Of a DNA stretch of 64,000 bases, positions 29,493 through 30,494 are shown piece after piece (the first letter of the stretch is position 1; each line of letters begins with the position of its first letter). Below the pieces are notes generated by a model. That model had not been told where the DNA came from. It saw only the letters and a program-made list of their open reading frames with translations, and made no database searches. A program made the translations under genes and the position numbers. The stretch lies in NCBI RefSeq assembly GCF_055900595.2, contig NZ_CM148325.1. One strand, 5' to 3'.

Positions 29493-30418
29493 TCTGCAAC
29501 ATACAGGTGCAGCCGGGGAATGATCAAACGAAGCGGCTGCGCCTGTGGTTTATAACGGTGTTGCACATTGTCGGCATCGTAATTTAACAACTCCCCAACG
29601 TCCGGCACGCCCGCGCCATTATCCCGATTAATCAGCGCAATAAGCGGCGTAGGGCAAGCGTGTTGTACTTGTTTTTGATCTCCCTTGTACCAGACGCGGG
29701 CAATCGGCTGCACCTTCACCGGACGTTTGATTTTTAACTTCGCGTCCTGTGGCAGGGTAGCAATATCCTGATACTCTCTCTCCAGTTTTCGTTGCCACTC
29801 TTCGCGCGTCCACGGTGCGACACTGCGCGGTGATTTCAGGCTTTTTTCCAGCTGTGCCAGGACTTCATCACGATGCAAATTCTTAATGATATGTTTATTG
29901 GCCCAGCCAAAACGTAAAGTGGCGGGGTCGTGCAGAACAGTGAGCGTTCGGTAAGCATTAAGGGTGATCAGCCCCGGCAAATGACGATGCACCCATTCAA
30001 AACGCGCCGCTGTGGGGAGTTCTGACTCTACCGTGACGATATGTTCGAAAGTGGTTTTGAGTTGATTGATGCGCTGAATATGACTGACCAACGCTGCTTG
30101 CGAAAGGTTATCGACCTGGTAACACAACACGCCAGGCAGTCGAACAGCAGCCTTGCTGCTGCGATTTTCGGACTGTTGCTGAATAAACAAATGGCGGAAA
30201 TGACGCAACGCCAGCGACTGCGCGTCGTTGCCCAGATGTTGCTTTACCTCAATACGATTAAGCGGGTTATGCTCATCCTCTTTTTTTACCTCCGGCAAAG
30301 AGAACACGCGGGCAACCAGCAATTTGTGCTGTTCTAGCTCAGCGGCAAATGCAGCCAGTTCTTGTTCCATCTGGCGAAAGGTAGTGTTGAGTCGGTCTAC
30401 GAGATCGTAACGCGCCAT
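29489..30418 (-). CDS. tus: Replication terminus-binding protein Tus
   Basis: ORF 29489..30577; start set at [22 protein letters not shown] (309 aa); stop overlaps the fumC stop by 4 nt. Confidence 0.94.
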
Positions 30419-30427
30419 AATATTAAC

Positions 30428-30451
30428 CACTTTAGTTACAACATACTTTAT
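30428..30451. other. Replication termination site TerB (Tus-binding)
   Basis: Sequence actttagttacaacatactttatt contains the conserved Ter core GTATGTTGTAACTAAAG on the minus strand, about 10 bp upstream of the tus start. Confidence 0.8.
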
Positions 30452-30494
30452 TTTATAGCACAGTATCGACAGCCTGACCACCGTGCGCGTAATG

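Follow-up and report, generated by a model that had tools for sequence, protein, structure and literature searches.

A TerB replication terminus site with a natural one-base insertion upstream of tus in Escherichia coli

The 64-kb stretch of DNA analysed here (the window) contains a TerB site in the spacer between rstB and tus. The site is very probably the chromosomal E. coli TerB, which would act through Tus both as a replication fork barrier and in tus autorepression. Compared with K-12, it carries one additional A (the +1 A allele), most likely functionally neutral. The locus represents known textbook biology with a minor natural polymorphism and is unsurprising to a specialist.

Results

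The TerB site and its cognate tus gene

The original prediction placed the Ter core GTATGTTGTAACTAAAG on the minus strand, about 10 bp upstream of the tus start. The core is present at 30430-30446 as an exact match and is the only match in the 64-kb window, even with up to two mismatches allowed (0.01 expected in shuffled sequence). The minus strand of region 30380-30520 reads ...ACGGTGGTCAGGCTGTCGATACTGTGCTATAAAATAAAGTATGTTGTAACTAAAGTGGTTAATATTATGGCGCGTTAC..., with AATAAAGTATGTTGTAACTAAAGT at TerB, the K-12 counterpart being AATAAGTATGTTGTAACTAAAGT. The predicted distance is also correct. The tus ATG occupies 30418-30416, leaving 11 bp to the 17-mer and 10 bp (GGTTAATATT) to position 23 of the 23-mer. 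The site is therefore located as expected for TerB, in the rstB-tus spacer and some 10-11 bp before the tus ATG when counted in this way. The spacer measures 76 bp and corresponds to the whole of 30419-30494; region 30416-30494 is the spacer plus the tus ATG. Sequence identity, position and orientation of the site are direct observations, as are the allele frequency and the promoter conservation described below. The features are collected in Table 1.

Table 1. Features of the rstB-tus region in the window
Feature	Position	Strand	Description
tus	29489-30418	minus	309 aa, DNA replication terminus site-binding protein; Pfam, K-12 identity and PDB matches
Shine-Dalgarno-like TAAAGTGGT	30426-30434	minus	7/9 match to TAAGGAGGT, 7 nt before the ATG; overlaps Ter positions 18-23
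TerB 23-mer, G6 register	30429-30451	minus	ATAAAGTATGTTGTAACTAAAGT; position 1 = 30451, G6 = 30446, position 23 = 30429
Ter core, positions 6-22	30430-30446	minus	GTATGTTGTAACTAAAG, as originally quoted; has the G/C(6) pair and the invariant ATGTTGTAACTA
AAA run with the one-base insertion	30447-30449	minus	AA in K-12 (MG1655 alignment); which A is extra is not assignable
Putative tus extended -10	30452-30460	minus	TG (30460-30459), c, TATAAA (30457-30452); read from the sequence
Putative tus -35, TGGTCA	30475-30480	minus	17 bp upstream of the -10; comparative conservation
rstB	30495-31796	minus	Sensor kinase; stop TGA at 30497-30495, 76 bp upstream of the tus ATG

G6 of the site is located at 30446 on the minus strand. 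Position 5 is an A at 30447, forming A/T(5) with the T on the C6 strand, and the inner core, positions 8-18 (ATGTTGTAACT), is matched exactly. G/C(6) is the pair whose C6 flips into a pocket of Tus, and the G/C(6) end of the site is its non-permissive face (PMC8707476). The T at position 5 is required for the lock, and for TerF and TerH a T-to-G change at this position is the proposed cause of a loss of the lock (PMC8707476). The legend of Figure S3 in PMC8347550 gives positions 1-5, 7 and 19-23 as the variable outer part of Ter and positions 8-18 as the inner core. Crystal structures do not resolve the outer positions, whose contribution to binding is small in both the bound and the locked state (PMC8347550). 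As far as can be read from the sequence, all the features of a Ter site are present in the window except literal identity with the K-12 23-mer. This identity fails only at outer positions 2-3, with 21 of 23 positions matching in the G6 register, equivalent to a one-base insertion. The alignment with K-12 confirms that the core stands in a Ter-site position, positions 4-23 being identical to MG1655 TerB.

The ORF directly 3' of the site had been taken for tus, and this identification holds. It encodes an intact Tus of 309 residues, covered over its full length by the Pfam Ter family (PF05472, E=2e-137). The protein shares 303/309 residues (98%) with MG1655 Tus and matches PDB entries 1ECR, 2EWJ, 2I05/2I06 and 4XR0-3. 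The six differences from K-12 are at residues 23, 27, 116, 119, 221 and 224. None of them coincides with the residues that we take to form the C6 pocket or to contact DNA (E49, I79, F140, H144, G149 and R198). The gene order is rstA-rstB-TerB-tus, followed by convergent fumC, fumA/B and manA, and is the same in MG1655 (~1.68 Mb) and in the nearest complete genome.

A natural +1 A allele

One inserted base relative to TerB had been reported with the original prediction and ascribed either to an incorrect TerB comparison sequence or to a strain variant. Alignment with MG1655 revealed the insertion. The window reads ctataaaatAAAGTATG where K-12 reads ctataaaat-AAGTATG, and the two sequences are identical from there past the ATG. 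Around the insertion, CTATAAAATAAAGTATG in the window is aligned with CTATAAAAT-AAGTATG in K-12, the extra A being just 5' of G6. In the G6 register, the two 23-mers, ATAAAGTATGTTGTAACTAAAGT and AATAAGTATGTTGTAACTAAAGT, differ only at positions 2 and 3. A/T(5), G/C(6) and the entire inner core are unchanged. The oligonucleotide for native TerB given in PMC4499146 independently confirms the K-12 reference sequence; the TerB sequence behind the original prediction was thus correct. The explanation by an incorrect comparison sequence is thereby dropped and that by a strain variant retained, the variant being a natural allele.

The frequency of this allele was obtained with a 71-nt query encompassing the -10 element, Ter and the first tus codons, searched in 5,426 complete E. 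coli genomes. An exact match was found in 261 of them (~5%). All 38 sampled rows with less than 100% identity span 65-70 record bases as compared to the 71 of the query, and those aligned over the whole query span 70. These one-base-short alignments indicate that the corresponding genomes do not have the insertion. The K-12 allele, searched as an exact 55-mer, was found in 2,329 genomes. A third allele, T7G (AATAAGGATG...), is exact in 794 genomes (at least 15%). Judging from these matches, TerB is polymorphic within E. coli and the window carries a minority +1 A allele. Because of this polymorphism, the K-12 23-mer is unfit as an exact-match TerB probe across strains.

G at position 7 is seen in E2348/69, O157:H7, ATCC 11775 and an ST131-type strain, and is also the base found in TerC and TerG. 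T at this position (30445 in the window) is shared by the window and K-12. O157:H7 additionally differs at positions 3-4.

A homopolymer error in sequencing or assembly, the true sequence being that of K-12 TerB, would also account for the extra base. A change in the length of an A run, here from AA to AAA, belongs to an error class of some sequencing platforms. However, the run has just 3 bases, and the identical 71-mer occurs in 261 complete genomes that were assembled independently in many laboratories, which argues against an artefact. Moreover, the nearest genome, Z0117EC0005, is identical to the window across the whole rstB-tus spacer. An error is therefore extremely unlikely.

Z0117EC0005 shows 99.7-99.96% identity with the window over 10300-51247, as compared to 96.2% for MG1655 over the same stretch. 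This assignment was settled by direct BLAST against Z0117EC0005, the ranking obtained in a 21-kb search being distorted by an IS10 copy. Among carriers of the allele, YDC107 is an ST964 strain of phylogroup D (PMC6035167), and WCHEC4533 and WCHEC96200 were analysed among ST405 genomes (PMC9037040). The +1 A carriers identified are phylogroup D strains, as regards the carriers so typed. A scan of species-representative genomes with the 20-mer made of Ter plus GG gave 14 loci, without E. coli, E. fergusonii and E. albertii. Only one Escherichia outgroup, Escherichia sp. MOD1-EC7003, was recovered, and its spacing is that of K-12. Most simply, the extra A would thus be the derived state, a call that rests on this one outgroup and on the E. 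coli majority.

Predicted overlap of TerB with the tus promoter

A putative tus promoter is located immediately upstream of TerB. Its -35, TGGTCA, is invariant in all the E. coli alleles compared, and TGGTCA or TGGTTA is found in Cedecea, Dryocola and Enterobacter. The register of the -10 is conserved in the E. coli alleles, in Enterobacter (TGTTATAAT), in Cedecea and in Dryocola. More generally, the -35, the 17-bp spacing and the TGn-TATAAA/T motif are kept in seven E. coli alleles, cryptic Escherichia, Enterobacter, Cedecea and Dryocola, whereas the sequence of the spacer varies. A mechanical scan of 30300-30650 with the sigma-70 consensus called no promoter; it missed TATAAA because its rule demands a T at the sixth -10 position.

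The -10 ends at 30452. With the usual spacing of 6-8 nt, transcription is predicted to start at Ter positions 6-8. Since this predicted start is inside Ter, Tus bound to TerB would cover it, which would be the basis of autoregulation. [quoted passage not shown] As cited in PMC8707476, these statements trace to Roecklein et al. 1991 and Roecklein and Kuempel 1992. Downstream, the 3' end of Ter together with the following GG looks like the tus Shine-Dalgarno sequence. AAAGTGG is kept upstream of tus in other genera.

Between the -10 and G6 there are 4 nt in K-12 and 5 nt in the window, as compared to 6 nt in Enterobacter, Cedecea and Dryocola. The 5-nt spacing of the window is thus within the natural range.

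Several other features of the spacer were observed. An 11-bp patch, 30463-30473 on the minus strand, shows 8 substitutions relative to strain 7/2, whereas ~40 bp of flanking sequence on each side match 7/2 exactly. This strain shares the +1 A Ter allele, and its version of the patch is nearly that of K-12. The version in the window occurs in only 12 of the 5,426 genomes, and MOD1-EC7003 has yet another one. The change in the patch is far above the expectation for neutral divergence; a complex mutation or a short-patch conversion are possible causes. A hairpin or terminator was considered for this variable patch, B2-type alleles having GGTGGT-N6-ACCACC. Since K-12, the window and MOD1-EC7003 do not conserve the motif, the candidate was rejected. 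A scan of 30300-30650 identified no terminator-like hairpin in the rstB-tus spacer. Finally, a perfect TTGACA at 30493-30498 (minus strand) overlaps the rstB stop; K-12 has CTGACA. It is probably not a promoter, because no -10-like hexamer follows 16-18 bp downstream.

Orientation of the site and terminus setting

GC skew is positive on the plus strand over nearly the whole window. This sign indicates that the resident fork runs from low to high coordinates, through tus, and thus meets the position-23 (permissive) face first. The site is therefore oriented as in a fork trap, permissive to the fork of the replichore in which it is located, and the same orientation was described for TerB (PMC8707476). 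A fork arriving from the rstB side, from high to low coordinates, would reach G/C(6) first and be locked out. Its K-12 equivalent is a clockwise fork that got past TerC. From this polarity, coordinates above 30451 would be inside the trap and those below 30429 outside. TerB thus ties the window to the terminus region of E. coli and places its rstB side within the fork trap. In a check of the orientation by strand bias, KOPS gave n=1 and Chi 4 versus 4; neither bears on the polarity, which was taken from the GC skew.

The assignment of the window to the replication terminus region, also part of the original prediction, is right in the broad sense only. Synteny with K-12 at ~1.68 Mb and one matS agree with it, but the 64-kb window contains neither a second credible Ter site nor a sign change of the GC skew, the mark of the dif region. 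The matS, GTGACACTGTCAC, is the single exact match to the consensus (10845-10857; 0.01 expected by chance) and is consistent with a location in the Ter macrodomain. One-mismatch matches to GNRNGTTGTAAYKA at 8508, 10305 and 39883 were rejected as Ter sites. Their number is at chance level (1.67 expected) and each of them breaks G6 or the GTTGTAAC core.

The site might be a transcriptional operator only, or a chance Ter-like match, with no fork arrest in the strain of the window. TerC is the innermost barrier on the TerB side in E. coli, and most forks never reach TerB (PMC8707476). The lack of a second Ter site in the window, which would have indicated a cluster, goes in the same direction. On the other hand, the exact 17-mer is not a chance match and the site has the fork-trap orientation. 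In K-12, forks have been documented to pause at TerB (PMC8707476). [quoted passage not shown] Taken with these data, a site devoid of barrier activity is very unlikely.

Proposed mechanism and effect of the extra A

In the following scheme for the window, Tus binding, locking and autoregulation come from the literature. Tus, encoded just downstream, would bind the 23-bp site. A fork coming from the position-1 (rstB) side, from high to low coordinates, would unwind the G/C(6) pair. C6 would then flip into the Tus pocket, so that the complex becomes locked and the helicase is stopped. The usual fork, from low to high, would meet the permissive face and pass. Because the site starts right after the tus -10 and covers the predicted start, bound Tus would exclude RNA polymerase and thereby limit its own synthesis. 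In this scheme, the extra A would alter outer positions 2-3 and shift the operator by 1 bp from the -10.

In principle, a 1-bp change in the spacing between operator and promoter could alter the strength of repression. The extra A may accordingly be functional, the shift of the operator and the changes at positions 2-3 retuning autorepression or lock efficiency in the carrier lineage. The insertion is exactly between the -10 hexamer and G6, and the neighbouring position 5 matters for the lock (PMC8707476). The allele is also confined to a minority (261/5,426) whose identified carriers belong to phylogroup D, a pattern that fits a lineage trait. Against this, positions 4-23 are unchanged, including A/T(5) and G/C(6). 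Positions 1-5 are variable and contribute little to binding in the bound and locked structures (PMC8347550). The 6 nt from the -10 to G6 in other genera show that the spacing is not tightly fixed. A functional role of the extra A is therefore unlikely. That the +1 A, in phylogroup D strains among others, is non-neutral and shifts the set-point of tus autorepression or the formation of the TerB lock is, in particular, quite improbable.

We infer instead that the +1 A allele is most likely neutral. Its spacing is in the natural range, the outer positions contribute little, T(5) is kept and the Tus substitutions are off the residues presumed to form the C6 pocket or to contact DNA. Moreover, the presence of exact carriers in 261 of 5,426 genomes argues against a deleterious effect. 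If the allele were non-neutral, the level of Tus, the occupancy of weaker Ter sites or the formation of the lock would be altered, giving a slightly different fork trap in the lineage. Should the insertion change autoregulation, it would be a natural means of relating operator-promoter spacing to Tus levels; nothing suggests that it does.

Comparison with known TerB sites

K-12 TerB (upstream of b1610, MG1655 ~1,684,226-1,684,248) is found at the same rstB-tus locus, in the same orientation and with the same Ter positions 4-23. Both sequences are identical from G6 through the tus start and share the -35, the -10 and the 17-bp spacing. They differ in the 23-mer, beginning with ATAAA in the window and with AATAA in K-12, and in the length of the rstB-tus spacer, 76 bp versus 75 bp. 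The 8-substitution patch in the promoter spacer and 6 of the 309 Tus residues also distinguish the window from K-12.

Other natural E. coli TerB alleles, such as T7G (E2348/69, ATCC 11775, O157:H7), have the same site, the same promoter and the invariant core positions 8-23. They are changed at position 7 (T to G) or at positions 3-4 without change in length, whereas the window keeps T7 and adds a base.

In Enterobacterales with type I and type II fork traps, Ter1/TerB is also directly upstream of tus (Toft et al. 2021, PMC8707476). As in the window, its non-permissive face points away from tus, the site overlaps a -10-like TATAAA/T, and AAAGTGG is the putative ribosome-binding region. Differences concern the distance from the -10 to G6 (6 nt as compared to 5 in the window), the distance from Ter to the ATG (7-9 nt as compared to 10) and the flanking genes.

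Mobile elements in the surrounding region

The window and its nearest genome also differ by mobile elements. Z0117EC0005 has an IS200/IS605 tnpA beside a truncated clcB (L002, NZ_CP098223.1, 1863-2321). This tnpA has no counterpart in the window, in which the alignments on its two sides meet at ~49528-49534. Conversely, the window contains a complete IS10 of 1,329 bp (35387-36715) that is absent from the otherwise 99.7-99.96% identical Z0117EC0005. The element carries a 402-aa transposase ORF (35399-36607, minus strand) and, on the plus strand, RNA-OUT, identified with Rfam at 36600-36669. The insertion point is in the 3' end of ydgH, and a 9-bp target duplication, TACTTAGCG, borders the element on both sides (35377-35385 and 36715-36723).
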